Source: Pseudogymnoascus verrucosus
Taxonomy: Eukaryota
Direction: 5' to 3' (one strand)
NCBI GenBank assembly: GCA_001662655.1
Contig: KV460237.1
DNA length: 64,000 nt
The first letter of the stretch is position 1; each line of letters opens with the position of its first letter. The notes beneath the pieces are model-generated. The model was not told the origin of the DNA. It did no database searches and saw nothing but the letters and a program-made list of their open reading frames with translations. A program made the translations under genes and the position numbers. This document shows positions 9,537 through 44,543 of this stretch, one piece after another.

Positions 9537-9635
9537 ATCGTGGTGCCAGAGTGGTTAATGGGTATGACTCGAATGCTTTATTGCGATAGATATCATATGG
9601 CTTCGGCCGCGTAGGTTCAAATCCTGCCCACGATG
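9537..9635 (+). tRNA. tRNA-Ser(CGA) with short intron
   Basis: Acceptor stem ATCGTGG/CCACGAT, D loop AGTGGTTAA, anticodon stem TATGA/TCATA around CT-CGA-A plus intron, long variable arm, GGTTCAAATCC T loop, downstream T tract. Confidence 0.93.
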
Positions 9636-11375: not shown

Positions 11376-14300
11376 TTACGCTGAGTTTTTGAATATTGAG
11401 TTCAAGCTTTTACGGTTAATATAGAAGCTTAAAACTTGACCGTTACGAAACCCAATACCCAATTGATCGCCTATGGCATCATGACATTGTACCTCGAAAT
11501 CTAACGGTAAACGAAATATAGGCATCGCTCCATAGTAAATCCACTGATTATCTACCCAGAGATTTTCTAACGACTCGAAGCCAAAGCTTTGCCTATTTGC
11601 AAGGATGCTTTCGATCTTGATCTGACCGAGATTTGTTATGAGGTGTCGGCCGTTTGCGGAGAATTTTAGAGAGAAGACAGGCTTTGAGGTCTTGATTTCC
11701 CGCCATGCACGGTGCCTGAGATGACTACCTAGAGTGCTACCAAGCAATTTTGAGACCTTTAAAGCTTTGGTAACGTCCCACAGCTTGATGGTGTTGTCAT
11801 CAGACCCTGTGGCGATCTGCTTGCCGTCTGGCGAGAAGGCTACAGCCTCGACCCAGTCCGAGTGGCCTGCGAGCGTCTTCTGGAGGCCGCCTGTGCTAGC
11901 ATCCCATAGCTTGATGGTGTTGTCCGCGGACCCTGAGGCGATGTGCTTACCGTCTGGCGAGAAGGCTATAGCTGCTACTAAACCTAAGTGGCCTACAAGC
12001 GTCCTCTGGAGGCCGCCTGTGCTAGCATCCCATAGCTTAATGGTGTTGTCCCCAGACCCTGTAGCGATCTGCTTACTGTCTGGTGAGAAGGCTATAGCTG
12101 CCACTAAGCCTGAGTGACCTACGAGCGTCTTCTGGAGGCTGCCTGTGCTAGCATCCCATAGCTTAATGGTGTTGTCATTAGACCCTGTAGCGATCTGCTT
12201 GCCATCTAGTGAGAAGGCTATAGCCTCAACCCAGCCTAAGTGGCCTACAAGCGTCTTCTGGAGGCTGCCTGTACTAGCGTCCCATAGCTTAATAGTGCTG
12301 TCTTCAGACCCTGAGGCGATGNNNNNNNNNNNNNNNNNNNNNNNNNNNNNNNNNNNNNNNNNNNNNNNNNNNNNNNNNNNNNNNNNNNNNNNNNNNNNNN
12401 NNNNNNNNNNNNNNNNNNNNNNNNNNNNNNNNNNNNNNNNNNNNNNNNNNNNNNNNNNNNNNNNNNNNNNNNNNNNNNNNNNNNNNNNNNNNNNNNNNNN
12501 NNNNNNNNNNNNNNNNNNNNNNNNNNNNNNNNNNNNNNNNNNNNNNNGCCGCCTATGCTAGCGCTAGCATTCCACAGCTTAATGGTGTTGTCATTAGACC
12601 CTGTAGCGATCTGCTTGCCATCTAGTGAGAAGGCTATAGTTCTAACCCAGCCTAAGTGGCCTACAAGCGTCTTCTGGAGGCTGCCTGTGCTAGCATCCCA
12701 TAGCTTGATAGTGTTGTCCCTAGACCCTGAAGCGATGTGCTTACTGTCTGGCGAGAAGGCTATAGCCTCAACCCAGTCTAAGTGGCCTACGAGCGTCTTC
12801 TGGAGGCTGCCTATGCTAGCATCCCATAGCTTAATAGTATTGTCCCAAGACCCTGAGGCAATGTGCTTGCCGTCTAGCGAGAAGGCTATAGCCTTAACTA
12901 AGTCTAAGTGGCCTACAAGTGTCTTCTGGAGGCTGCCTGTACTAGCATCCCATAGCTTAATAGTGTTGTCCCCAGACCCTGAGGCGATGTGCTTACCGTC
13001 TAGTGAGAAGGCTATAGCCCCTACTAAACCTAAGTGGCTCGCGAGCGTCTTCTGGAGGCTGCCTGTGCTAGCATCCCATAGTTTGATGGTGTTGTCCCTA
13101 GACCCTGAGGCGATGTGCTTGCCGTCTGGCGAGAAGGCTACAGCCTCGACCCAGCCCAAGTGGCCTGCGAGTGTCTGGATTAGAGAAGCCCACGAGTCTT
13201 CCACTTGGGGGAGCGTTCCTAACCACATAGGAAGCTTGTCTAGGTTGTTTGTCCTTACTACACTTGTTCGAGGGCTGAAGACTATCGCAGAGCTATAAAT
13301 TTGTAATGGCCAAGTTGCTATTGTCAGGTAGTGTCGCAACAAGAAACGTGTAGCATCTTGCACAAGATTCGATAGCGAAGGGTTTTTTTTTATCTAGACG
13401 AGACTTCAGTCAGATAATGACATTGGAAATTGATGTCTATTACGCACCACGTCTGTAAATGTACTTAATGTCTCAATAGCGCTTGGGAGCCTATCCAATA
13501 AACTCAGGCATTCTAGCCACTCTAATAACCTTGTGCGGAGGAATGTACTAGCCTCCCCTTGCTCAGCGAGAGCATTTTGTACCAGCGTGGTTCGCTTGAC
13601 GCACTCCATGTGCTGAACCCAGAAGGTAGCTGTATAGTCCACGCTAATCAAGAGTGCATTCGTTTTCATCGATTCCCTAGTTGAATCAGGTCGCGACAGA
13701 TCAGCAAGATTTATCTTGAGTCGTTTGGTTAAATGGGAGAGACAATTAAGCGCAATCTCACCATGCCCATAATGTTCATAGGAGTTGAATATAGATTGTC
13801 CATCCCTTCCAGCCAGGAAATCTCGAGCCGATTGATGAACAAATTCGATGTCTGTTCCTCGTCTCTTGACAAATGAAGCACATCGATCAACCCACACTTC
13901 AATAGCAACCAATTGTTTAGACAGACCTGTCACGCTACCCACCTCTTCCACATTCAGAGGTCGATAGGCCAGCATCATTGCCTTGAGGAGTCGCATACAT
14001 CCCTTGACAACGGCTGACTCGCCTTCATTAAGCTGATTGAATACCCGACGATAAAAATCAGGCAGATCTGGCGGCAAATCTTGAATTGTGGTCAAAACCT
14101 TGTCCCGGTGTACGCTCTCGAGTCTCCTGCATACTAAGCTTACCCACAACATTGTGTCCTCAGCCTTTGCAGCAAGCTCAGTCTCTACCTTCTGCCGCAA
14201 TGTTGGTCCATAATGGTGGCGACGGTCGAGTTCAATTGCTTTTGAAGCGATGAAAGTCTTTACAACTTCAGAAAGTTGTTTTTGGTTGAGCTCTAAGCTG

Positions 14301-15674
14301 ATCCCTACCTGATCAGATCCAGCTAACAACTCTCGCTCAGCGCTATCCAATGGTCGACTAGTCAGCAGCCATTTGATTTTGGAGGGTTGATCGAGCCCTG
14401 TTCGGACAATAAGCTTTAGAAAATCTGCCATGCCATCATCTTGGCACTCATCAAGAGCATCCACGATCACGTACACTCTCGGGCACTTGCATCGGCTTAG
14501 CATCTCTAAAAAGATGTTCCAGAGCGTTCGCCACGACGTAACATCCTCATCAAAACGTTCGTTTGTAGTATCCCAACGGCGTCGCAAAGACTCTTTGAGA
14601 TCCTTTTGCTGAGTAACTAATTGCAGAATCAGGCCCTTAATGATTGCTTCAAGGGTTTTAAGCTCATAATCGGCCTCTTGACAGAAGAAATAGGTCACCA
14701 CGGTAGATTCATCTTGTGGACGTGAAAGTCGCTCAATAAGGCCAATCGAGATCATAGTCTTTCCTTTGCCCGCGCCGCCCTTGATCCAGAGTAAACATAC
14801 ATCCTCTCCATCCTTCCAACTAATATATCTAGGGTCTTGAAGAATCCAGTCGATGGATTTAGGGAGCAACTTGTCCTTATTCTCTTTCAGCCGATTTTTG
14901 ACAGCTAGCGTATCAGGGCATCGCAGAGACCGGAGACAAGATCGATCTATATCATCGGGAGTTGTAATTTTATGATTATTAACTACAACATTTGTTAACT
15001 ACAAAACCCTTGTACAAGGACTATGACATTGGCATACCAATATGATTGGTTCCATTGTACTGATTGCCTGGGCCGTTGAGCTGATTGCCAGGACCATTAA
15101 TGTACTGATTCCCCCCCCCCAAGTGAACGTTTTGGGCGCCACTTCCATAGTGTGCGTATGCAGGCGTCTGCTCAAAGCCGTCAGGTAAAGAAGGCTCCAT
15201 CTTAGTCACCTCCTCGATGGCCGTTGCCAGCTGGTCTTTGCCTCTTGATGTCGTTACTTCTGGAAACCTCGTTGCTAAGAGTTGCAAGTCGTCTAAAATC
15301 CTCCCAACCAGACTCTCCACACGACCGCCTTCGCCAATCGTCCGAGCAGCTTTCATATATCGGTCCCACCTTGAGTCACCCTCTCCTGGCATGACCTTTT
15401 CAAACAACTCTTGAAGTTGTATAGCTTGAACTTTACAATCCTCTAAAGTAGGTGTAAACGCAGCCTTTATCGACTCGTCCGTCTCGTTATTAACGTATTC
15501 TTCCGCATGTTCGAGGAGTTTTAAGATAAGAGGGAGTTTCGTTGCCGACTTTTTGAAATTTGTTGGGAGGCCAACTTCGTCTTCGACAGCCTCGTAAACT
15601 TTTTTGGTGGCATCAATGATTGAAATGATTGCTGAGATGGTGCCAAGGACAAGACCTGCTTCAGCGCCGGACAT
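11376..15674 (-). CDS. Fungal NLR: SesA (HeLo-like) domain, sigma-type amyloid motif, NACHT, high-identity WD40 repeats (HET-E-like); introns 14983-15037 and 13394-13447
   Basis: MSGAEAGLVLG...GLP...LPL...MEPSLPD N-terminal domain; P-loop GGAGKGKT; Walker B VIVDALDEC; FVHQSARDFL; PLQIYSSA; GH..WV..[VI]AFS.DG..IASGS.DNTIKLWD repeats. Both introns restore the frame. Confidence 0.92.
11775..13165 (-). repeat. Array of at least 10 near-identical 126-bp WD40 units; true number unknown because of the gap
   Basis: 126-nt periodicity on both sides of the N run. Confidence 0.95.
12322..12547. other. Assembly gap inside the WD40 array
   Basis: Run of N. Confidence 1.
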
Positions 15675-15925
15675 GATTTATCGAAGCTGGAATAAGTCAG
15701 AAGTGTATGCAGCAAATTGAAAGTCTTCCTCACAGGGTTGTCAACAAATGGTAAGCAGATAATGAGTGCGGAGTAGTATTGAATGAGGGGATGTTGACAC
15801 AGTAATGAGACTGGAATGATGAATGAGATTGAGGTTCAGCCTCATAAAACGGCTGGGGTGTCGCGCTAAAATGCTACCCCGCTCCAAGGGTTAGCGCGAC
15901 GGCCCGTGGCTTAACCAGAGTTCTA

Positions 15926-31031: not shown

Positions 31032-31663
31032 GGCCACTGTGGGCGGTCGATAAGGAACAGGTATGTAAGTGTATCTCAGCTCAGGATGGAGAGAAGCCTT
31101 TGTTGTCGTGTTTCTATCGTCGTGAACAGTCCAGTATCTCCTAAGGTTACAGGAAGCAACTCGTGGACAATAGCGGGCAACAGCGATAAGCCAATGATGA
31201 TAAGGCCCTGCGAGGGCCAAGATAGTGCCTGATCTGCCCCACCTTCGCCTAAACCCAAATGGGACGAAACGCTAAACTGTTTTAGGGGCCCTTCTGTTTA
31301 TGGCGACGCTTTGTTTACATCGAGCTTGTCTGCCCTGCCGAATTCAACCACACCGACCATCGAATGTACTCTATACACCAACCCGCCAACCAGTACACCA
31401 ACCAACGTCTACGAGGAAAATTGTCAGGAGCGGACTGCATCTGAGATGCTCTAACACCTGACCTGTATATCTTTACACGTTGTATTGTCTCATGTTTTAG
31501 CAAACGAACAGCTGCATTGGCACCGATTACCTCGATTTACACGCTTGCAATCGCTCGACAAGGGTATAGAAGCTTGCCCACTGCTCGACGAAGGGCACAT
31601 TGCCCAAGCTAGAAAGCTCTTTTTACTATACACACAGGGCCTCATCTACACACAAACGGTCCT

Positions 31664-34600
31664 ATGGCAGGTATGCCACGGCCGACATCTGTCGCGCCTT
31701 CAAGGAAGAACAGTATGCGCCCACCACGTCCTCGCCCATCCACAGCTAGGGCAAACTCAGTACGACCAGCCAGCCGAATGGACCGAAACGGTGCAATCTC
31801 GCCAGCGGACTCGATAGCTTCTGCAGCTACGACAGGAACAAAGAGGAAGGAGAGGGACTTCGAACGCGATGGCCCGGAGGAGACAAACATAAATGTCGTT
31901 GTGAGGTGTCGAGGGCGCAATGACCGCGAGGTCCGAGAAAACAGCGGAGTTGTTTTGACAACAGATGGTGTCCGCGGGAACAGCATCGACCTTTTGATGG
32001 GACCAAGCGCGTTGAGCAACAAGACGTACCACTTCGACAAGGTCTTTTCCCCGGCCGCTGACCAGGCGATGATATACGACGATGTCGTGACGCCGATATT
32101 GGATGAGATGATCGCGGGCTTCAACTGCACCATTTTCGCGTATGGCCAGACGGGGACAGGGAAGACTTATACGATGTCGGGAGATATGGACGATACCCTG
32201 GGCATGTTGTCGGACGCGGCTGGTATTATTCCTCGGGCTCTCTACGCGCTTTTCAACAAGCTCGAGATTGATGATGCGGAGAGCTCTGTGAAGTGCTCAT
32301 TCATCGAACTTTACAACGAAGAGCTTCGCGACCTTATCTCCGCCGACGAAACCAGCAAACTTAAGATTTACGAGGATGCTGGCAAGAAGGGACACGCGGC
32401 GACTTTCGTCCAGGGTATGGAGGAGGCACACATCAAGAGCGCGGTGGAGGGGGTGAAATTGCTCCAGAATGGGAGTCACAAGCGTCAAGTGGCAGCCACC
32501 AAGTGCAACGACCTCAGTAGTAGAAGTCATACGGTGTTCACGGTCACCGCGTATGTCAAGCGCACGGGCGAGAACGGCGAGGACTACATCAGCGCCGGAA
32601 AGCTCAACCTGGTGGATCTGGCAGGTAGCGAAAACATTCAGCGAAGTGGCGCTGAGAACAAACGCGCAGCCGAAGCGGGTCTTATTAACAAGAGTCTGTT
32701 AACACTTGGGCGAGTTATCAATGCATTGGTCGATAAGAGCTCTCATATCCCATATCGCGAATCGAAACTCACGAGACTGCTGCAAGATTCGCTTGGAGGA
32801 CGGACCAAGACTTGCATTATTGCGACTGTCTCCCCAGCTAAGAGCAACCTCGAGGAGACAATATCCACTCTGGACTATGCCTTCCGCGCGAAGAACATCC
32901 GGAATAAACCACAAGTCAACCCGAAGATAGACAAGAAGACTCTGCTCAAGGAGTTCACCAGCGAGATCGAAAAATTAAAGAGCGAGCTGATTGCCACACG
33001 GCAGCGAAATGGAGTTTATATGACGAACGAAAGCTTTGAAGAAATGACGGTGGAGAGAGAGTCGAGGAGGATATTAAGTGAAGAACTCAGCGCGAAGATT
33101 GAGACGATGGAAATCAACCTCCGGAATAAGGTCCAGGATCTACATTCACTGACCGCCAACTTTATGAACCTCAAGAGGGAGAATGAAGGCACGCGAGCAA
33201 CGTTAGACGAGACGAAAGACGTACTTGAGCAAACCGAAACCGTTCTTACCCAAACCCGCCAGCTTCTATCCGAGGAAGAAATGCTAAGGAAAGCGCATGA
33301 GCGCACCGAGGAGGAATTGGCAGAAGTCGGCTCGACGTTGATATCTACTTTGGAGAAGACCGTCACCGATGTCGGCAGCCTTCACTCGAAAATCCGCAGG
33401 AAGTCCAACCTCCAATCGATAAATAGAAGCACTTGGGGTCTCTCGCAGACCCAAGTTTCCGATGTGACAAGCCTGGTCGAATCTCGTGTTGAAGAATTTA
33501 GAGCGCAGCAGGAGGAGCTCATGGCAAGTGTTTCCACCAGGATGCAGTCGTTTGTTCAGGAGGAGCTGGAGAAGCTTGGGGCTACGCAAGCATTTCTTAG
33601 TGAGAATGTGGCTTTATTCGAAGCATCGCGGGGAGAGGTTTCTCAGCAGACCAGCCAGGCAAAGGATAAGATGGATGAGGTTCTTGAGGAAATCAAGGTC
33701 TTACGGGAAGTTGTTAAATCCCGCGTCGGGGAGGGATTGCAGGGCCTCTCTGGTGCTGCTGAACGCATTTCTGGCGAGGTGTTGAGTGAACTTGACACCT
33801 TCCATTCCCAGCTCCATACGTCTTATAGCTCACTTGGTCGCGACTTCAAGGGCATGTTTGAAGATCTTATCAAGCACGTTAACTCGCAGAAAGCCGAAGC
33901 CGATGACCTTCGAAATCAACTCAATGCAGCTAGCGAAGCTTTGGTGGAGTCAAACTCTGCGGCAACATCCCAGCTGGAACGCGTGATTGTTGAGGAGCGT
34001 GAGCAAGCTGCTACAGATCGCGAGAACCTCCTCCGACAGATCACCACTCTTGTTATGTCTCAGGGTGAGAGGCAAGATGCTAGAGTTGAAGCTAAAGTCA
34101 CTGCGGTTAAGGAAAGTATCAAGAGCTCTGAGGCTACATTTGAGGCATCTAGGTCTGCGTATAACCAGAGTATGGATGCATGGAACGAGAAGGAGCAGAA
34201 GCTTGTGGAAGAAGTTCACCTGTCTCGCGAAAACTTGAAGACAAAGCTGAAGGAAGATTGGATAGTAAGTACATTGCTCGATGTAATCGAAACTCTGCTA
34301 ACATACATAGACCGCCAACAAGCACAATGCATCCATCCAATCGACAACAAAATCTGTCCATGAGGAGACTATCCGTATTGTGGACGAGCAAATGAAGGAT
34401 ATTGCCATTCACATGGAGGCTCTGGACGACTTCGTCAGCCGCGCACGAACACAGAATGCCGAGCACCACGATAGCCATGCGCAGTCTCTGAAGGACCTTT
34501 CATCGACTGTTAGCGATTCTTACAGCAATATTGGAACTCACTTTACGTCCTCATATGACAGGGTGAAGGACCTGGGCGAAGAGATGGCAACCAAGACGAC

Positions 34601-35201
34601 CACATTACAAGATGCTTTATCACCACTCGATACGACATTACGCCAGCCTCTTGCAGAATTACGCTCAAACATCGTCAGCACTCTTCTCCAGGAATACGTC
34701 CCTACAGGCAACACTCCACTCAAGCAGCAATATCAGTTCCCAACAACGTTGCCTCGCACAGAGCCGCATGAGAAGCTGTTAGAAAATGTCCGACAACCGG
34801 CTGTCTCCACTACTCCGTTGGTGTCGCCCACCAAATACATCCCAGTGATCTTCAACGACGTGGCTACACCAGCCAAAGAAGAAGAGGTATCTCCTCCTTC
34901 CAATCCCACATCGGAGACGGCGCCAACTCTCGGACTTAGGGAAATCGATCTCAATATACACGCCGGGTCGCTAGGCTCCGTACCCCTCAGTACCGACACA
35001 GCCTCCAGCAATGATGCCGAGGCACGACCCGCATTCAAACGCAGCATGACTGCTAGTGGAATGAGGCTTCCGCAGAAATCGGCCAAGAGGGCAACGGTTG
35101 TGCCACTTGAGGGGAGGGAGAATAATATAATCCCCGTTGCTGCGTTCTCACAAAGCACTGGGAGGAGGAGGAGCCCGAGAATTGGGGGAGGGTTATCATA
35201 G
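31664..35201 (+). CDS. bimC: Kinesin-5 (BimC/Eg5); intron 34265-34310
   Basis: Motor motifs AYGQTGTGKT, SSRSH, LVDLAGSE, HIPYRESKLT; coiled-coil stalk; BimC box YVPTGNTP. Confidence 0.96.
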
Positions 35202-35608
35202 ATATTTACTGTGGGGGGAGGTGTTTAGGGATTGATTGATGGCCTTGGTTTGCTTTTGAGCACTGGCGGCTGGCTACTTTATCGGCGCAACGGCCTTGGG
35301 GACGGAGGGATAGTGTGGTGTTTGTCTTTCTGTTGTCAAGGTTTATGGTGATACCTGGGTTCAGTATCGTTCTGGGACCCTTCTGTTTGAAGTAATACTT
35401 GAAAGGGGCTTGGGTCTCCCTCGGTTCTGTATGAAGTTGGTCGAGAATAAAATTTCAATTATGCATTTAGATCGGTATGAATACTGTGCTTTACTATGCG
35501 CATATGCTGAATAACTATAAACTGTAAATTTTGATGTTCTCAGGCACAAGAAGCAGAAATGATAGTCAGCTACAGCAGTATTTAGTCCTGGAAGTACACA
35601 TAACTGTC

Positions 35609-35670
35609 ACATACGATCATGGACTTAAGAGAATTGTGCATCCCGTCTGCTCTGCCGTATACAAGCTTAA
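35609..35670 (+). rRNA. 5S rRNA, 5' half (nt 1-62), interrupted
   Basis: ACATACGATCAT...GAGAATTGTGCATCCCGTCTGCTCTGCCGTATACAAGCTTAA matches the ascomycete 5S 5' portion, then similarity stops. Confidence 0.88.
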
Positions 35671-35755
35671 AATTCATGGCTTAATACTCTCTAAATTGTG
35701 CTAATAGGCATGGCGTGGAACCTAAGCTCCTTGCCGCCTTAAGGGCTTCCTATAT

Positions 35756-36975
35756 TTATGTTGCAGAAACAGCAAATTGCTCCCACAACGCCGCTCCGGT
35801 TGCGGTAACACCTCCAATAGTGGCCTCAATAGTACCAACCCAACGAACATATATCCCGATATTAATCTGCGTCGACGTCTGAGTCAAGACAGCATCCAGG
35901 TGACTCCCATCATTAAGAGTCATATTGAGAGTCAACGCCTTGGGGACAGTAGTGAAGATGGTTGGAGGATATGGGGTGTCGATAGGTCGGATCTTAACAC
36001 CGGTTGTGCAGGTAGACGCGACGACTTGGCCATCCTTCAGAGCATAACCACCGACCTTGTTGGCTCCTGATGGGTCGATCATGTCGAAGAAAACGAGGTC
36101 GTAACCACCAACGCTCGCGTGGCCCCAGTACCAACTCTTCAGAGCTGAGATGAAGGGGACGTCTCCCCAGTTCTAAGATATTGTTAGTATCGCATCGCAA
36201 TAAAGTATCAAGACCACCGAAGACCGCCTACCTTGTCATGATATCCATGTCCCGTAAACTTCAGGGGCTTGCCAAGGACCTTAACATCCACCACTGCATC
36301 AGCACCTGGCATAACATTAACCCAGCCGATATTGGGCAGTGACTGTTCATCCTGGCCAGGTCCAAGAGGGCCACAGTTATAATGTCCCGGACCACGCTGA
36401 AAGGGTCAAATGTTAGCTGGAAATAGACCTGAATCTAAAACATGGGGAGCGCATACCGATTTCAGGGTGAAGGTGCCAGTGAGGCCAATAAGTGGGTTGT
36501 TCAGGTTCACAACGTAGGAGCTGAGATCGGGAGCTCCTTTAAAGCTGATGCCGCTTCCTTTCCAGTCTCCCGACGCTCCATCGCCATTCGTAGTGGTAGT
36601 AACCGACACTGCTGGCACGGGGAAGACCGCAGGAGGCGTTCCGTCCGCAAAGGTTGCAAATACCCAGACGTTCAAGGGATCGACGGTGCTGAAGAAGTCG
36701 AAGCTGAACCCAATGGCAGATGAGGTAAAGAAGATGACCGTGAAAGCCTGAGTTCCATCACTAGAGACGGCGTCAAAGTACCACCAATCGAACGTCGTCG
36801 CGTTGAGTGGAAAGATCCTTGGGCCATCTGCCTGGCTTGGGCAAGATGTGAATTGAACTTGGCTGGGCCCTGCATAGGGAATGGGAGAAAAGGTGTTTGT
36901 GTCCGGGAAGCACTGGGACAGGGCAGCTGGAACCAGCGCGAGCAAGGACGCGAGGGTGAAGAAAATATTCTTCAT
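35756..36975 (-). CDS. Secreted lipocalin-like protein of the Diels-Alderase (Fsa2/CghA) / CrtC-like hydratase superfamily; exons 36457-36975, 36232-36396, 35756-36172
   Basis: Signal peptide MKNIFFTLASLLALVPAALS; FDWWYFDAVS, GHYNCGP, GWVNVMP, GYHDKNWG, SWYWGHA, YVRWVG, GAALWEQF. Confidence 0.8.
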
Positions 36976-37099
36976 GTTGGGATTTGATAATCGCGCGGTG
37001 CAATTCAACTGGGAGGCAAAAGAGCAAGCCAATGTCCCTGAAAACACCCAGGAAAGCTTAATATTTAAGACTTTTCCAAGGTGATACAATGGATGCTTT

Positions 37100-37440
37100 A
37101 TATCTCTCCATCCCAGCCCCGCATATGTGGGTTCATAACTCCACGCGATACCCCGCGGTTCGGAGAGAGCTGCCGTCATGCAATGTCAGAACTCTCCTAC
37201 TCGAATAGTTAGTTTCGACAGCAAAAAGAGGGGAAAAAGCTGTCTTGACCATTTACACGCTGCTATACTGATATCTCTCCATCCCAGCCCCGCAGAACTG
37301 GGTTCAGAACACCACGCGATACCCCGCGGTTCGGAGAGATATGCCGTCATGCAATGTCAGACCTTCCCTACTCGAATAGCTAATTTCGGCCAAAAGCGGG
37401 GGAAAGCTGTTTAGACCATTTACACACCTGCTATGTTGAT
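37100..37440. repeat. Direct tandem duplication of a ~171-bp promoter segment
   Basis: Units start ATATCTCTCCATCCCAGCCCCGCA at 37100 and 37271 and align over their whole length. Confidence 0.92.
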
Positions 37441-38274
37441 TCAAATAACTCAGCTGTGCCTTCGTCTCCATGTTTAAATGGTGATACGCGGCATGTTGAG
37501 TCAGGAACCGCGACCTCAGTTTTTCCAGAATAGGTATAGTCCGCGAAACAACGGCACAAACCTTGGTCGAACTCGAATATGTAAGGTAAATCCCCACAGG
37601 GATCGGGGTAGGTAGACAAGCCTCTTCCCACTTTTCTTGGTAAAGTTTATTTCCTGTATGGTGACCCTGGCTGAGGTTCAGATGAGAACATGGCCGATGA
37701 AACTGTCCAAGGACTCCGCAATTTAGAGTCAGCACGTCAGTACCTTAATACCGGCGCTAGTAATGGACAGTTCTAGTGCGCTCCGTGCACTATAGAGGCC
37801 ATGCTATCTATCCTCTTCACTATTATCAAGTAGGAATGTCTCAAGTTGTGTCGGGATAATGCCACGAGATGACGACTTGTTGTGGCACGTTTTTGGACCT
37901 GGTGTGTTGTCATATTCCTATATGGTTGGTACCAATCCTATTTAATGCGGTACATACAGGCAAACTGATTATTCTCCTCGTGTATTCTATCAGCTCCTGC
38001 GAGGAATAAATTACCCCTTCCCTAAATCGGTTAACTAGGCTACGAATTACAATGCCGAGGATGCTAAGTTACTATGGCGAGGGTATAAGGGGACTGAATG
38101 ATAAGTTGATGATAGGGATTGGCACAGGGTTAATGCATGTAAAAGCTGGCATCATAAGAATATTCGACGATCTGTATGCGCCTTTGGCGCTAGTACAGGA
38201 GTAGCTACATGGGTATTACGCATGACCATGAGTGGCTCGAACGACATCAAGGTGAGATATAGGCAAGTGTAGTA

Positions 38275-38620
38275 CCTGCTCTGCTTCGATGTCCTTCCGG
38301 ATCCAGAGCATGCTCCGGAAAGCCCACCTCTCCCAACGCTGGTCCGTCGGCATCATTTTGGTCCAATTTGGGTGTCCTGTAGGGACTGTGATCACTGCGT
38401 TGTCGGTCGTCCACGCATATGGTCCCGATATTGCTAGCACTCCAAAGTCTTTCAGTTGTGGATCGCTCATTAAGCTGTGTTGTACCATCCGCTGCTTTCG
38501 GACATTCAGTTGAAGGACCTGGAGTGTTCTATTCATGATGGGTAGGATAAAGCACTCGGCAGTTCCTACTAAACGATTCATGTGGTCCTCCGCATGGAAC
38601 GCACCTCGGTATCACCGCTT
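38275..38620 (-). mobile_element. Tad-like LINE fragment spanning the ORF1/ORF2 junction
   Basis: ORF1 end PRCVPCGGPHESFSRNCRVLYPTHHE* overlaps the ORF2 ATG; endonuclease start LQVLQLNVRKQ...RSMLWIRKD. Confidence 0.85.
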
Positions 38621-38865
38621 GACTGTTACTAGTCCGCATGTTTGCCTGGATATATTTTCTAGCCTAAATACAAACTTACCCTTGCTTCAGCCCCAAGATA
38701 TAGATAGCTATATAAGACCATCCCACTTGATGTTTTCAAGGACATAGAGAGGGTGTATATACATAGCTCTAGAGCTCAGTAAGTAGCAAGTAATGGTATA
38801 AACTAATACATTCAGAATTTAAAGGGTTTAATAGTGGTATGCCTAACTATACGGAAACTCCGCTA

Positions 38866-40133
38866 CTAAGAGCGTCTAGTCTGTAATCTATGCATATAAG
38901 CATTGTCTTCATCTTGAAAACCTGAAAAGTCTGTTATTAAGTCGTAGACGTTTTCACGTCTCTCCCAGAGCTTCCTCTCAAAATCCTCGACTTCTTCTAA
39001 TGTCATGTAGTCTTCCTGCAACGTCGTGCCGACTACTCCATGAAACTCCTTATCACTTTCTTCGCACATTTCCGGCCACTCGTGCATAACTGGGAAGTCA
39101 GCTTTGTATACCGCACTCATGCTACCACTGGCCCACTCCTGGCAATGAAAGCGCTGTCGAATTCGTCGCTCGATATAGAATGGCTGAGGCGGGCTCTCTT
39201 CAAAAAAGTGAGTATCTGGTCTTGCATAGCGTGGATGCAACTTTGGAAGGTTAAACGTTATATCCATGTGAGGCGTGGTTTGCTCTTCAGAGCAAGCCTG
39301 CATGCGTGCAATCAGGGCAGCGATGATCTGACGCAGGGCTACGCGTTCGTTGACGAATGACCATGAAGGTCTGTCGTCGTGGTCTAACCATATGTGAAGG
39401 CTGCGTAGTTGCGGCAACTGGCAGGTAGCCTGCCAGAGACGGGCCCACGCAGAAGCGCATTTGTTTAATTCGACGCTCGTGTCATGATTTGTTACCAAAA
39501 CTAAGTTTTCATCTTCCTGTAGTGCTTCATAGAAGGCTAGCGGAAGTCGTAGGGCGATGTTCAGCTTATGAATAGCAGGACGTGTGTGATCCCAGAAGTT
39601 CCAGGGGCGGTTTAGGTCACTACTCGGCTCAAAAGGCGTTTGTAGCAAGACGTCCAGGGTATCTAGATCTGTGATGTTTATCGCTGTACCCTCCGAAACA
39701 AAGTCACAGACATCGAGAAACCTATAAGTTAGAAGTGACACTTAGCGAAGAGCGATCTTAAGGAATAGATAAAGGAATTTGTTTACATTTTCTTACATAC
39801 AAAGAGAAGGTTGCCTATGTTATTGCGGCTATGCTCGTGCAAGTTCTCTGCGTAGGCAGCCTCCTTACATTCCCAATGTGCCCCCCACGAGGATCGCAGA
39901 CGGCGGGCCCACGTAGTATCTGGCGATCCTTCGGCCGTAGGCTTACGCTCGCGGCCGTCGTGGCGGTCATCCCCTAGGCTGGGCTGAAGGCATACTGACA
40001 GTTGAAGTCTGCCCTGCGACAAAAATGCGTGAGTCTGGCCATGAATGATACGAGCATATATTGCTCGGCGAATCTCGACGAGCATAGAGAGCAGTTTGCT
40101 CTCATGCTGCGAGTGCACATGTACGTCGTTCAT
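38866..40133 (-). CDS. Hypothetical protein with F-box-like N-terminal motif, two exons
   Basis: QHESKLLSMLVEIRRAIY...LLFVCKKM joined by a GT-AG intron (~39724-39786) to a ~290-aa ORF with LPQLRSLHIWLD. Confidence 0.7.
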
Positions 40134-40529
40134 GTTTCTTTAATCGGTAAGTAGATGATATTTTGACTAGGATAGTTCGATTTGTTTTTAAGGTGAATGC
40201 TATATCACAAATTAGTGGCAGTTAACCAGACTTTACAACGTAGACGTAGTTGCGGGATCCTCGGCAAAACAATTATCTAGGAAGTTGTTCTAGTTTGCAG
40301 GGAACCTAGTATTGGCCTGAGTTATTATTGGAAATACGAGGCAGTGCAATAGAGCAATCTCACAACTGCACGACTACTGCCATATTGAATTTCACTATCG
40401 CATTATTAATAACAGTATTCCTATTCGTTTAGACATTATAGTTTTGAACGACATTAATAGAGGCAAGTTGCAATGAAATATACGTTTCTCATGAGTGGCC
40501 ATGATGTGTAATATCTGCGAAACTTCAGT

Positions 40530-41125
40530 CCACTCCAAGCCCTCTAACTTATACTTCTATATGCTATTTATTATAAGTAGTACCTTATGTCCTTATAAGA
40601 GTAAGCTAATCTTTAGGAGTAAGGGCTTTCTATATAAGGATATAGAGTACTATATTATAAGAAGTAGTATATAGAAGTATAAGTTAGATAGGAGTTAGTA
40701 TAATTCTATAGGTCTACTACAAAGGATATAAAAAAGATAAAGAAGAAATAGGAACCTATTATAGTAGCTCCCCCTTAGTATCTGAAATAGGTCTAACTCT
40801 ACTAGGTTATATATTATAAAACTATACTACTCTACTTCTATAGTATATAACTCTATAACAGCTCTAAGTCCTAATCCTATAAGTACCCCCTAGGGGAGGC
40901 ATCCTTATATTCTATCCTATTATAGTAGATATTAAAAAAAAAACACAAAGTTGTAGACAGAGGACCTTAAAATATAAAGGTAGGAGACTGGCCCTTTATA
41001 CCATTTCCCTAGCTTAGCTATACTCAGCTTCCTTACCTATCTAGCTTACCCTACTTACCTTGCTCACCTTACTTACCCTACTCACCTTACTCACTATGCT
41101 TACCTACTTACCTAGCTCACCTACG
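40530..41125. repeat. AT-rich, TpA-saturated RIP relic ending in CTTAC/CTCAC tandem repeats
   Basis: Very high TA content with CA/TG/CG depletion; original element not identifiable. Confidence 0.75.
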
Positions 41126-41287
41126 TGCATCTAATGTTGCGTTACAACGCGTTGTTAAAAATGGACCTACTTTTGGATAGTTGAGGTAGTTAAAGTGGTC
41201 GCCATCTCGAAATAAGGGTAAGGGCGGCGAGGCTTACCTGCTAGCCCAGATGGCACCGATTTAAGTAATATCTAGGTGTTTGCCCAA

Positions 41288-41344
41288 GATCAGTAGATTA
41301 GTAGTTACGTGGGTGACCACTAGCGAATACCCACTGTTGTATGT
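41288..41344 (+). rRNA. 5S rRNA, 3' half (nt 63-119), interrupted
   Basis: GATCAGTAGATTAGTAGTTACGTGGGTGACCACTAGCGAATACCCACTGTTGTATGT; its 3' end pairs with ACATACGA of the 5' half; T tract downstream. Confidence 0.9.
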
Positions 41345-41556
41345 TATATGTTATATGTTGTATGTTTTTTATTATTTTGCCATTTTATACGTTGAATTTT
41401 GGCCCCTGAAGTTGAAGTGGTTTGCAGGGAGTGGGGGACGACCCTGTAAAAATATTGTTGTGGCCTTGCAGCCTCATCCCACCTCAGTGTGAACCGCGAA
41501 CCGCGCCGCGGACCCAAAAAGTTCAAGCTCAACCCCAAAGCCATGGGCCAGTGCCA

Positions 41557-44543
41557 ATGATGAGGGTGCCCTCAGCTAAATCCTGGTCTTCAACAATCAG
41601 ATTGCCCAAGTCCACATTCCCGTAAGCCAAAATAAAGCCCCCATTGGAAGCCACCCTCATAGTCCCGAAGTACTAACACAGCACCGATCTAGCCCTCGAA
41701 CGAAGCCGGCCGACCAAGCTAAATATCTCCAACGATGCACCGATGACCTGTACGCCTGGCAGGCGAAGGTTCGCGCCCAGCAGAAGCCGTTTGTGCTTCA
41801 TGATGGGCCACCATATGCCAATGGCAGCCTCCACGCTGGCCACTCCGTGAACAAGATCCTGAAAGATCTTATTTGCCGAACAGAGCTCCAGCAAGGTACA
41901 GCCGCGGCACACACACACATTGAAGCTTAATCTAACACATTGGCAGGTCGCAAGGTACAATTCGTGCCGGGCTGGGATTGCCACGGCCTCCCGATCGAAA
42001 TCAAAGCCCTCGAACAAGTCCGCGCGAAGAGCGAAGATAGAGAGGTAAACCTCGACCCCATAGGCATCCGACGCGCCGCGCGGAATCTTGCACGGAAAAC
42101 AGTGAAGGAGCAGAAGAAGGGGTTTAGGGAGTGGGGTATAATGGCAGACTGGGAGAATCCCTGGGTCACGATGGATAAGGAGTTTGAACTGAAGCAGCTG
42201 GAGGTGTTTTTGGAGATGACGAGGCAGGGACTGATTTTTAGGCGGTATAAGCCTGTTTATTGGTCGCCGTCTTCGAAGAGCGCGTTGGCGGAGGCGGAGT
42301 TGGAGTATAATGAGGCCCATGAGTCGATAACGGCCTATATCAAGTTCCAGGTTGTGGCGGTGCCGGAGGCGTTGAAGGCTCGGGGGGTGGATACTGAGCG
42401 CCTACATGCTGTCATATGGACTACTACGCCGTGGACTCTACCCGCGAACAAAGCAATTGCCGTCAGCCCTGACCTCGAGTATACAGTGGTGGAAGTCGGC
42501 AGTGAACAACTGCTGATTGCCAAGTCACGCCTCGAGCATGTTGCGGCGAAATGCGCATTCCCCGAGTCGTTCAAGGTGGTTGTCGAATCGATTAAAGGCT
42601 CTGAACTCGAGGGACTGACATATGTCAATGCCCTCCATGGCGAAAATGCTCCAATCCAGCCCTTGATATTCGCAGACTACGTGTCGGATGCGAGTGGATC
42701 GGGTCTTGTTCACACTGCTCCCGGCCATGGAATGGAAGATTACGACGTGTGCACAAAGTTGGGGATCGAGGCTTCCGCGCCCGTGGATGATGCCGGCTGC
42801 TTCACGGACGAGGCATTACCTCACAATCCGTCCGCGCTGGCCGGAAAATCTGTTCTTGGCGGCGGCAATGAAGCTGTGCTCGCGCTTTTGGGATTCCAAG
42901 TCCTTGGGGTTCATAAGCACGAGCACAAATACCCCTACGATTGGCGCACGAAGCTTCCTGTGATAGTCCGTGCGACTGAGCAGTGGTTTGCGGATGTAGG
43001 CAGTATCAAGGATAAAGCGCTGAAAAGCCTTGACAATGTCAAGTTTATCCCGGAGAACAGCCGTTCGAGGCTAGAGAGCTTTATCAAGGGGAGGAGCGAG
43101 TGGTGTATTTCCCGGCAACGAGCTTGGGGTGTTCCCATCCCTGCTCTGTACGACGAAAGTGGCAAGGCTATTTTAACGCAGGAGAGTGTGTCACATATTA
43201 TCTCGGTAATCCAGGAAAGGGGCATCGACTCATGGTGGACGGATGCTCAAGATGATGTATCATGGGTTCCCCCTAGTCTCCGCGGCCAAGGTACCCTAAA
43301 ACGGGGTACAGACACCATGGATGTGTGGTTTGACAGCGGAAGCAGTTGGACTCAAACCGAGGGGCCTGCAGACGTATACAGCGAGGGAACAGACCAGCAT
43401 AGAGGGTGGTTCCAATCGAGTCTTTTGACGCACATAAGCGCATCCGGACTGGACTCGGCTCCCTTTAAGACATTGGTCAGCCACGGTTTCACGATCGATG
43501 AGCATGGCAAGAAGATGTCCAAGTCTATTGGCAACGTTATTTCTCCCGAAGAGATCATGAATGGAACCTTACTGCCACCGATAAAGCGTAAGGGAAAGGC
43601 GACTGGCCCACCGGCATACGATGGTCTCGGAGCTGATGCATTGAGGCTCTGGGTCGCGAGCAGTGACTACACGCATGATGTTGCACTTCGCCAGCCGGTT
43701 TTCAAGGCTATCAACTCGACCTTACTGAAGTACCGCACAACCCTCAAAATGCTCCTGGGCTCAATGAGGGAGAGCAGCGAAAAAGTGCAGTTGACGAAGT
43801 TGGATACTATTGCATTGTACCAGCTGCAGCAAACTCAGATTGGCTTCAATGAAGCGTGTCGGGCGTACAATTTCCACAAGGCTGTCAGCATTTTGAATCG
43901 CTGGATTAATACGGATCTATCGTCGTTCTACTTGGAGGCTATCAAAGATCGCTTGTACTGTGGAAATGGAGGCGGTGTGCTCTACCCCATCTTCATGGGA
44001 CTTATGCATATGCTTGGTCCCATTACACCGGCTCTAGTCGAGGAATCATGGGAGCATAGGCCGCAGTGGATGAAGGACAGTACTTCTTCTGTACACCCCC
44101 TTCAACGCAGCACCGAGGAGCTACGTCTTCTCACCTACAAGTTCCCCGCAAGTCTGCCAACAGATATCTCACATCTGATGGCCGCCAACGCCGCCATCAA
44201 GACTGCTCAAGAAGAGGCCCGAACCGAAAAACTCGTTGGGTCATCTCTCCAATCTTCTGTTATCCTGACCCTACCCAAAGAATCACAAGATTTGTTCCAG
44301 AACTACGCCGACGAGCTCCAAGAAATCTTCGTCGTCTCATCTGTCGAGTTTGGCTCTGGAGAAGAGCGTGTGGCTGAGTGGAAATTCAAGGCTGAATTCG
44401 AAGTCCCAGGTGGGAAGGGAATTGCATGGGTTCTCCCTCCAAAGGAGGCGAAGTGTCCTAGGTGCTGGAAATACGTGGCTCCTACTGAGGATGACTTATG
44501 TGGGAGGTGTGCTGAGGTCGTTGAGGTTACGCCGTCGTCGTGA
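41557..44543 (+). CDS. ISM1: Isoleucyl-tRNA synthetase, bacterial/mitochondrial type; introns 41622-41692 and ~41896-41946
   Basis: [54 protein letters not shown]-terminal CPRC...CGRC. Confidence 0.95.

Follow-up and report, generated by a model that had tools for sequence, protein, structure and literature searches.

A 5S rRNA gene of Pseudogymnoascus verrucosus split by a 5.6-kb gene-bearing insert shared with related genomes

Results and Discussion

A 5S rRNA gene in two halves

In a 64,000-nucleotide stretch of contig KV460237.1 of Pseudogymnoascus verrucosus (NCBI GenBank assembly GCA_001662655.1; this whole stretch is referred to as the window), a 5S ribosomal RNA (rRNA) gene lies in two halves, separated by 5.6 kb of other DNA that we call the insert. 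The halves are co-oriented and join into a 119-nt gene that is cut between nt 62 and 63, and an AA stands at both junctions. The insert carries two intact protein-coding genes, a scrap resembling a long interspersed nuclear element (LINE) and a relic of repeat-induced point mutation (RIP); no mobility gene was found in it, and it is present in four related genomes. A preliminary description, made from the letters of the window, had reported the split at this nucleotide, the AA at each junction, a kinesin-5 gene and an isoleucyl-tRNA synthetase (IleRS) gene as flanks, and the lack of a captain, which is the DUF3435 recombinase gene of the Starship elements. All of these stand. The coordinates are exact, helix pairing and paralog contigs agree with the split, intact paralogs have a single AA, both flanking genes are recognised by Pfam, and DUF3435 is found neither in the insert nor elsewhere in the window. 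The same description had gone on to propose a very small, non-autonomous or derelict Starship with both ends intact, or a different 5S-specific gene-carrying element, a proposal that is weighed below. Coordinates of the features are collected in Table 1.

The 3' half is recognised by Rfam. In a search of 105 nt, a 5'-truncated match to the 5S_rRNA family (RF00001) aligned 41286-41345 to model positions 61-120 with 19.3 bits (E 0.042), which is below the gathering score of 38 bits, a threshold set for the full gene. Forcing a full-length alignment on 41246-41345 gave 16.6 bits, lower than the truncated alignment. The 5' half alone had no Rfam match at E ≤ 10, which is unsurprising because helices I and II need the other half. 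Rfam detected no 5S match in 35500-35800, where a hidden partner beside the 5' half would lie, and self-BLAST found no second copy of the insert ends or of either 5S half in the window.

The pairing of the joined halves, computed in-script, is more telling. Of the 17 standard pairs of helices I and II, 17 form. The 12 for which the 3' half is needed are all among them, and of the 127,322 57-nt windows on both strands of the 64 kb just one, the true one, achieves this. The earlier statement that the helices form only when the halves are rejoined holds for helix I and for two pairs of helix II, but the other six of the eight helix II pairs (CTTAAG/CTTAAG) are internal to the 5' half. With helices I and II enforced, the joined sequence adopts a 5S-like three-way junction at -23.3 kcal/mol, as compared with -25.8 kcal/mol for the unconstrained minimum free energy (MFE) structure. 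The free MFE of the joined halves is uninformative against shuffled sequences (z = -0.12), and the free fold matches that of 5S in helix I only.

The surroundings of the two halves resemble those of a transcribed gene. A TATTTA motif lies ~30-35 nt upstream of the 5' half, and a run of six T begins 21 nt downstream of the 3' half, past an expansion of 7-nt repeats. We take this run, from RNA polymerase III (Pol III) biology, to be a putative Pol III terminator. The TATTTA motif and the T run would then mark a once-functional Pol III gene. It was also observed that the final 7-10 nt of the 5S gene are repeated about four times ahead of the T run.

Table 1. Features of the split 5S rRNA gene, of the DNA inserted in it and of the flanks (positions in the window)
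Feature	Position	Strand	Basis
Left flank, kinesin-5 (BimC-type) gene	31613-35201	+	Pfam Kinesin 2e-107, Microtub_bind 1.2e-10
5S rRNA gene, 5' half (nt 1-62)	35609-35670	+	Sequence, paralog contigs, helix I/II pairing
AA, left copy of the 2-bp direct repeat (right copy 41286-41287)	35669-35670		Sequence, intact paralogs
Inserted DNA, 5,617 nt including the right-hand AA	35671-41287		Lies between the 5S halves; junction-bridging contigs
Left terminal piece, repeated elsewhere in related genomes	35671-35745		Loose ends behind 35745, depth
Secreted AsqO/Diels-Alderase-like gene, 366 aa, 3 exons (introns 36456-36397 and 36231-36173)	35756-36975	-	Pfam, gene model
Tandem duplication with a period of 171 nt (copies of 118 nt, two in number, 90% alike), located upstream of the Diels-Alderase-like gene	37100-37388		Self-comparison
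Open reading frame scrap of endonuclease/exonuclease/phosphatase (LINE) type, 131 codons	38219-38611	-	ESM-Atlas likeness
Intact DUF7730-family gene, 400 aa, 2 exons (intron 39786-39722)	38866-40133	-	PF24864, relatives, gene model
AT-rich RIP-mutated repeat relic with inverted repeat 40543-40576 / 40655-40688	40540-41030		RIP indices
Tandem array of 9/18-nt units, CTTACCCTA-like	41031-41122		Repeat search
Right terminal piece, terminus of a dispersed repeat	41123-41287		Contig cover of 41235-41268
5S rRNA gene, 3' half (nt 63-119)	41288-41344	+	RF00001 match 41286-41345, paralog loose ends behind 41345
7-nt repeats reiterating the 5S 3' end, then a T6 run (41365-41370)	41335-41375	+	Sequence
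Right flank, isoleucyl-tRNA synthetase gene	41580-44543	+	Pfam tRNA-synt_1 1e-93, Anticodon_1, zf-FPG_IleRS

Intact 5S genes in related genomes

Besides the likely source (X1), fourteen public sequencing runs share 5-43% of the words sampled from the window. Contigs from four of the fourteen (X2, X3, X4 and X14, from four organisms and four studies) were aligned to 33000-44000 at 85% likeness. Two of these contigs run from the 5' half directly into the 3' half. Both are from X4; they join 35643 to 41286 and 35655 to 41286, and the 24 or 13 diverged letters in between have AAGCTT or AAACTT as their last six. Loose ends before 41287 end in AAGCTTG in three X2 contigs and two X3 contigs, and homology to the paralogs starts at 35608/35609 and stops at about 41345. 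From these joins and loose ends it follows that the intact 5S genes of this lineage read AAGCTT(A/G)A-GATCAG. The AA, which occurs once in the intact paralogs, is thus found twice in the window, at either end of the insert, and the joined halves are continuous in the same way as the intact genes of the same lineage. It is highly probable that a single old insertion, now a fixed relic, split a single 5S gene.

A few contigs bear on whether other 5S genes have been interrupted in the same way. One contig each in X3 and X4 joins 41007 to 41287, which hints at a second locus where related repeat DNA would abut a 5S 3' half at the same nucleotide. A piece of a 21-kb X4 contig, matching 35605-35691, may represent a second split 5S gene or, equally, an intact paralog over-extended by the aligner; over-extension is possible because an intact 5S gene matches 11 of the 21 nt past the junction. 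Separately, one X2 contig goes back 59 positions from 41345 to 41287, suggesting a repeated 5S 3' half somewhere in the X2 genome.

The insert in related genomes

Contigs bridge the left junction in all four runs (X2 33000-38273, X3 33000-37099 onward, X4 33000-38273, X14 34174-38273) and the right junction in three of the four (X2 41216-41320, X3 40949-41338, X4 40714-41338). The four relatives differ from the window by ~1-5% on the listed pieces, with 0.4% on one short X14 piece. Because the insert occupies the same locus in each of them, it is old and shared. Two separate 5S genes at these positions, which would have contradicted the split, were not seen among the aligned contigs. In X2 there is no cover over 38505-40339 and no contig joins across this gap, and we base no conclusion on it.

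The X14 run contains a second genome as well, ~12-14% diverged. Over 33298-43184 it yields equal-length contig pairs at similar depth, the members of which differ from the window at 4 versus 104 of 903 positions in one case and at 51 versus 170 of 1,308 in another; X14 is a hybrid, a diploid or a mixed culture. A 1,444-nt contig of the diverged genome covers 34174-35188 and 35390-35422 and then continues at 41434, with sides of 30-33 nt at this joint and the letters between not known. The ~13%-diverged genome has its Diels-Alderase homolog on a contig of 6.6 kb, and this contig shows no alignment to the kinesin flank. A homolog placed elsewhere, together with the joint from 35422 to 41434, gives a weak hint that the whole block may be an insertion at this locus; we do not count the joint as an empty site.

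The flanks differ in their divergence. The IleRS flank (41316-44000) is 3.5-5.4% from X2-X4, and the kinesin flank and the insert are only 1.1-2.5% from the same genomes. Close to the right end of the insert, the genealogy thus seems to shift in the way that recombination or exchange between lineages would produce.

Ends of the insert

The insert begins with AATTCATGG... (AATTC...) and ends with ...GTTTGCCCAA (...GCCCAA). The AA is the sole exact direct repeat at the junctions, next to an imperfect GCTTAA/GCCCAA, as compared with the 6-16 bp of 5S-targeting Starship families (PMC11162782). No terminal inverted repeats (TIRs) were found (best local score P 0.18), and the ends are not of the TG..CA kind with a duplication of fixed length.

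Both ends recur in the related genomes. Behind 35745, three to five contigs each in X3, X4 and X14 have loose ends, and the bin 35569-35935 reaches 3-4.4 times the single-copy depth in X2-X4 and ~2.5 times this depth in X14. By depth arithmetic, this amounts to ~6-14 extra copy-equivalents of the left-end bin. At the right end, 41235-41268 is covered by 4-13 contigs per run, and in X3, X4 and X14 the contigs with a variant at 41268 end 21 nt later, approximately at the junction.

When the insert is compared in register with the 5S gene that it interrupts, its first 21 nt are identical to 5S nt 63-83 at 11 of 21 positions (P 0.006), and its last 6 nt agree with 5S nt 57-62 (GCCCAA versus GCTTAA) at four of six (P ~0.03). 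This likeness is weakly suggestive of what attachment-site homology would give. Two purine/pyrimidine-coded metagenome scans for the left junction and the 5S 3' half of the lineage returned 0 matches.

Genes and repeats within the insert

The first gene of the insert encodes a secreted Diels-Alderase-like protein, as had been proposed. Its intact 366-aa model has Pfam matches to DA_N (PF24137, 3.5e-16) and AsqO_C (PF25581, 6.2e-40), and the N-terminus, judged by eye, is signal-peptide-like. Of its 366 residues, 362 (99%) are identical to those of a protein of equal length annotated in Pseudogymnoascus sp. VKM F-4519. The next relatives, in another Pseudogymnoascus, are 84% identical, and further relatives at 56-67% are scattered in a patchy way over Dothideomycetes (Periconia), Chaetothyriales (Cladophialophora/Exophiala), Fusarium and Xylogone. 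Such a spread fits an accessory gene that may move between lineages. The second gene had been called F-box-like; no F-box family matched it, and it belongs to the DUF7730 family instead. Although PF24864 on its exon 1 scores 21.4 bits, under the cut-off of 27, the protein has 38 relatives of similar length, and many of the full-length ones carry PF24864. The closest relative, from Pseudogymnoascus sp. 24MN13, is 97% identical. By the RIP indices, both genes are free of the RIP signature.

The remainder of the insert consists largely of repeats and their relics. X3 has a single copy of the 171-nt tandem duplication, because its contig skips from 37099 to 37271. For the LINE scrap of the preliminary description, Pfam found no match in the open reading frame (ORF); its likeness is to the nearest ESM-Atlas clusters (0.95), which are Exo_endo_phos fragments of ascomycetes. 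Within it, 38270-38273 is a structural hot spot where the alignments of X2, X3, X4 and X14 all break; 546 nt are replaced by 105 in X3 and X4, and X14 has ~3.7 kb extra. This is probably one nested retroelement that decayed differently in each lineage, and it fits a LINE relic. The RIP relic was borne out, with TpA/ApT of 1.80, (CpA+TpG)/(ApC+GpT) of 0.28 and a GC content of 0.31. The summed depth over 40340-41440 in the relatives is 7-70 times single copy.

One 16-nt stretch, TAAGGGCTTyCTATAT, is present as a near-perfect direct repeat at 35740-35755 and at 40620-40635, and the 4.9 kb between the two copies contain the LINE scrap and the pair of genes. When the gapped alignment is widened to take in this repeat and a weaker likeness upstream of it, the score is 33 (P 0.02 against the window background), and loose ends of the relatives' repeat copies fall within both 16-nt repeats (35745 and 40633). 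We considered a 5S-specific element of ~0.75 kb into which the 4.9 kb had been inserted between the repeats at 35740 and 40620. This candidate was rejected because, in other copies, neither the sequence after 35745 nor that before 40633 carries the repeat on, and because no joint from 35755 to 40636 is present.

Comparison with known 5S-interrupting elements

What kind of element, then, could have carried two intact genes into a 5S gene? Starships stand alone among known eukaryotic systems in moving entire host genes as cargo, with 5S genes as a favoured landing site. Among 222 curated Starship insertion sites, 23% are in 5S genes, at no fewer than five independent internal target sites (PMC11162782). 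Starships fragment 5S genes in Aspergillus and Macrophomina (PMC11162782, PMC9156397, PMC12153272); Voyager cuts 20 bp from the 5S start (PMC9156397), and the Osiris elements, 37-138 kb long, fragment 5S genes in A. fumigatus (PMC12153272). Degraded Starship regions that have no captain and still keep their cargo have been termed 'Derelict' (PMC9156397, Gluck-Thaler et al. 2022). Starships pass through an intermediate of circular form as they move, and an engineered mini-Hephaestus transposes (10.64898/2026.09.21.753150). In Table S8 of PMC11162782, nine Pseudogymnoascus genomes are listed with 11-33 predicted Starship recombinases per genome, and the number of delimited elements is 0 for all nine. 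Our literature search, which was not exhaustive, found no description of a natural captain-less miniature Starship.

The insert resembles the 5S-targeting Starships (Voyager of Macrophomina, Osiris and the Enterprise family of Aspergillus, and the Arwing family) in several respects. Like them, it lies inside the 5S coding region and has fragmented the copy, it carries unrelated accessory genes, and it has a short direct repeat without inverted repeats, which they often lack too. Their hosts are Pezizomycotina rich in DUF3435 genes, as is the case here. In contrast with them, the insert has no DUF3435 captain and measures 5.6 kb as against 19-700 kb, and its cut at nt 62/63 is not that of Voyager. 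It is also fixed in the four relatives examined, with no empty site seen, and ends in a dispersed repeat. The 'Derelict' regions are like the insert in that cargo has outlasted the recombinase and that they are immobile and shared among isolates. They are, however, large and are recognised by Starship-specific cargo (FRE, DUF3723, OCH1), whereas the insert has no such cargo and both of its junctions can be read. Mini-Hephaestus (10.64898/2026.09.21.753150; Urquhart et al. 2023) is a small element, too, and has kept Starship ends, but it is man-made and its mobility has been demonstrated by experiment, whereas the insert shows no sign of mobility.

Broken 5S genes also occur outside the Starships. 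The Neurospora 5S pseudogene psi-63 was reportedly hit by Punt, a RIP-mutated transposon, and Borsuk et al. are said to have described, in 1988, 5'-half 5S pseudogenes of Aspergillus nidulans with conserved adjoining sequence. These cases share with the insert a 5S gene broken in its middle and adjoined by repeated DNA with RIP-type mutations; unlike the insert, they are not known to have intact protein-coding genes.

Origin of the insert

We tentatively read the insert as an immobile, captain-less relic of a recombinase-type cargo element of the Starship lineage, with a probability of roughly 0.4. This origin is favoured because the target is a 5S gene, TIRs and a long duplication are lacking, the cargo is intact and the genus is rich in captains. 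Ends that lack TIRs and have so short a direct repeat are in keeping with recombinase-type elements and at odds with the ends of Tc1/mariner, hAT, Mutator-like (MULE) or long terminal repeat (LTR) elements. A dispersed, probably once functional 5S gene was cut once between nt 62 and 63 by an AA-flanked insertion, which destroys the gene because helix II and the internal promoter are pulled 5.6 kb apart. The split, the AA repeat, the content of the insert, its lack of any mobility gene and its presence in four relatives are shown directly by the data; we infer the recombinase-type origin and the following order of events. The circular form of an element moved by a site-specific tyrosine recombinase (Starship/Crypton lineage) would have integrated by recombination between a short core of its own and the matching core of the 5S gene. 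Both junctions would have survived, and the recombinase gene and most of the body of the element would have been lost later. The LINE and other repeats would then have nested inside, and RIP would have mutated the repeated part, while the two single-copy cargo genes (AsqO/Diels-Alderase-like and DUF7730) would have stayed intact.

Several results weigh against a Starship-lineage origin. The first concerns mobility genes. By Pfam, domains of DUF3435 or another recombinase, of a transposase or of a reverse transcriptase are absent from 118 stop-to-stop ORFs of at least 110 aa outside the insert and from 74 ORFs of at least 40 aa overlapping 35601-41399 (E ≤ 1). The two non-genic stretches, 37186-38873 and 40140-41290, gave no mobility domain either when read through in six frames with X in place of stops. 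DUF3723, FRE, PLP and NLR genes are absent from the insert by Pfam. The smallest Starship that we have met in print is ~15-19 kb, as against 5.6 kb for the insert, and 5S-targeting families have direct repeats of 6-16 bp, as against 2 bp here. Of the Starship features that were looked for, the captain, the size (5,617 nt with two genes) and the typical accessory genes are thus all wanting, and because these three are defining we do not file the insert as a Starship, only as probably derived from one.

The second group of adverse results concerns the locus and the ends. The insert is present in all four relatives, and no clean, empty, intact 5S site was seen among their contigs. The only contig that skips the block, the X14 joint from 35422 to 41434, seems to skip the 5S gene as well as the insert. 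By the depth arithmetic, no 5S 5' half precedes the extra left-end copies, because just one extra single-copy contig covers 35669. The contigs that share the right end stop at the junction and therefore continue into different flanks. The ends of the insert accordingly look, as far as contig comparison goes, like the true termini of a dispersed repeat family, for which specificity to 5S genes is not shown. Finally, the gapped likeness of the insert ends to the 5S halves is not above background (P 0.07-0.94), and because these gapped tests are not significant the in-register likeness is given little weight. On these results, three claims of the preliminary description lack support. Membership among the Starships is not supported, given the missing DUF3435 and typical accessory genes, the 5.6-kb length and the 2-bp repeat. 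Specificity for 5S genes finds no backing in left-end copies without a preceding 5S 5' half or in right-end contigs that stop at the junction. Intact ends with present mobility find no backing in the relatives, whose contigs, inspected for the empty 5S gene that had been anticipated, show the insert at this place in every case.

Much of the same evidence could be accommodated by an ordinary transposon nest. A repeat of another class (non-LTR, Helitron-like or unclassified) would have hit one of a few dozen 5S copies by chance, and the genes, the LINE and further repeats would have arrived later by nested insertion or segmental duplication. Chance hits of transposons on 5S genes have a precedent in Neurospora psi-63 and Punt. 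The dispersed repeat family to which the ends belong, with other copies not shown to abut 5S genes, speaks for such a nest, as do the mosaic of RIP-mutated high-copy repeats that makes up the right third, the hot spot at 38273 with its differing content in X3/X4, X14 and the window, and the 16-nt direct repeat that brackets the gene-bearing 4.9 kb. It is less easily reconciled with a target as tiny as 5S genes, with ends unmarked by a TIR, an LTR end, a poly(A) tail or a target-site duplication of greater length, and with two intact genes untouched by RIP inside a transposon relic, which require extra events. We regard the nest as less likely than not, and as nearly as likely as the Starship-lineage relic.

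Two related proposals would keep the insert mobile. It may be a natural non-autonomous mini cargo element of the Starship/Crypton lineage, consisting of two ends and two genes without a captain and mobilisable in trans by one of the 11-33 captain-type recombinases of Pseudogymnoascus genomes, in which case the dispersed end copies would be family members; this we consider improbable. A narrower form, built on the preliminary description, takes the insert for a miniature non-autonomous cargo element that targets 5S genes, has intact ends and would still be mobilisable in trans by one of the captains of the genome; it is slightly less probable again. Sharp junctions and intact genes speak for it, as do the 11-33 captain-type genes per genome in the genus (nine genomes, PMC11162782) and the transposition of the engineered mini-Hephaestus (10.64898/2026.09.21.753150). 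It is opposed by the same locus and structure in all four relatives, by internal decay (RIP, LINE scrap, indels), by a direct repeat of merely 2 bp, and by the contigs of the relatives, among which no second gene-carrying copy, empty site or circular junction was seen.

An origin without any mobile element is more doubtful still. A double-strand break in the 5S gene could have been repaired by capture of a 5.6-kb piece of DNA, with the AA as repair microhomology. The 2 bp shared at the junctions would agree with this, as would the lack of element-like ends and of a mobility gene, and a more distant relative has its Diels-Alderase homolog at another place. The insert's termini, however, are both repeat termini found in several contigs of the relatives, which is unexpected for DNA captured at random. 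The least probable account, in which the halves stem from two 5S genes whose junctions with same-family insertions were united by recombination or deletion between element copies, is in line with the greater divergence of the right flank (3.5-5.4%, against 1.1-2.5% for the left flank and insert in X2-X4) and profits from the fact that any 5' half of the lineage pairs with any 3' half, but it needs a 5S-specific family, which is not shown, and it is opposed by the exact abutment at nt 62/63 in the same orientation with promoter-like and terminator-like flanks on their proper sides.

If the insert did descend from a Starship-type element, it shows how small and durable the footprint of such an element can become, and how accessory genes become fixed between core genes. 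The insert also flags Pseudogymnoascus, for nine genomes of which the starfish catalogue lists 0 delimited Starships (PMC11162782), as a place to seek 5S-linked elements. Should the ends instead be those of an ordinary repeat, the locus is no more than a dead 5S copy that has served as a dumping ground.

Other features of the window

An NLR-type gene with a SesA N-domain, NACHT/NPHP3_N and WD40 repeats lies 20 kb away from the insert, at 11379-15677 on the minus strand, and contains an assembly gap of 226 N (12322-12547) within the WD40 repeats. The single match of a whole-window Rfam scan at gathering thresholds is a 99-nt tRNA on the plus strand at 9537-9635 (44.9 bits). Its anticodon region contains a 20-nt insertion and its variable arm is long, so that we take it as probably a tRNA of the Ser/Leu type with an intron.

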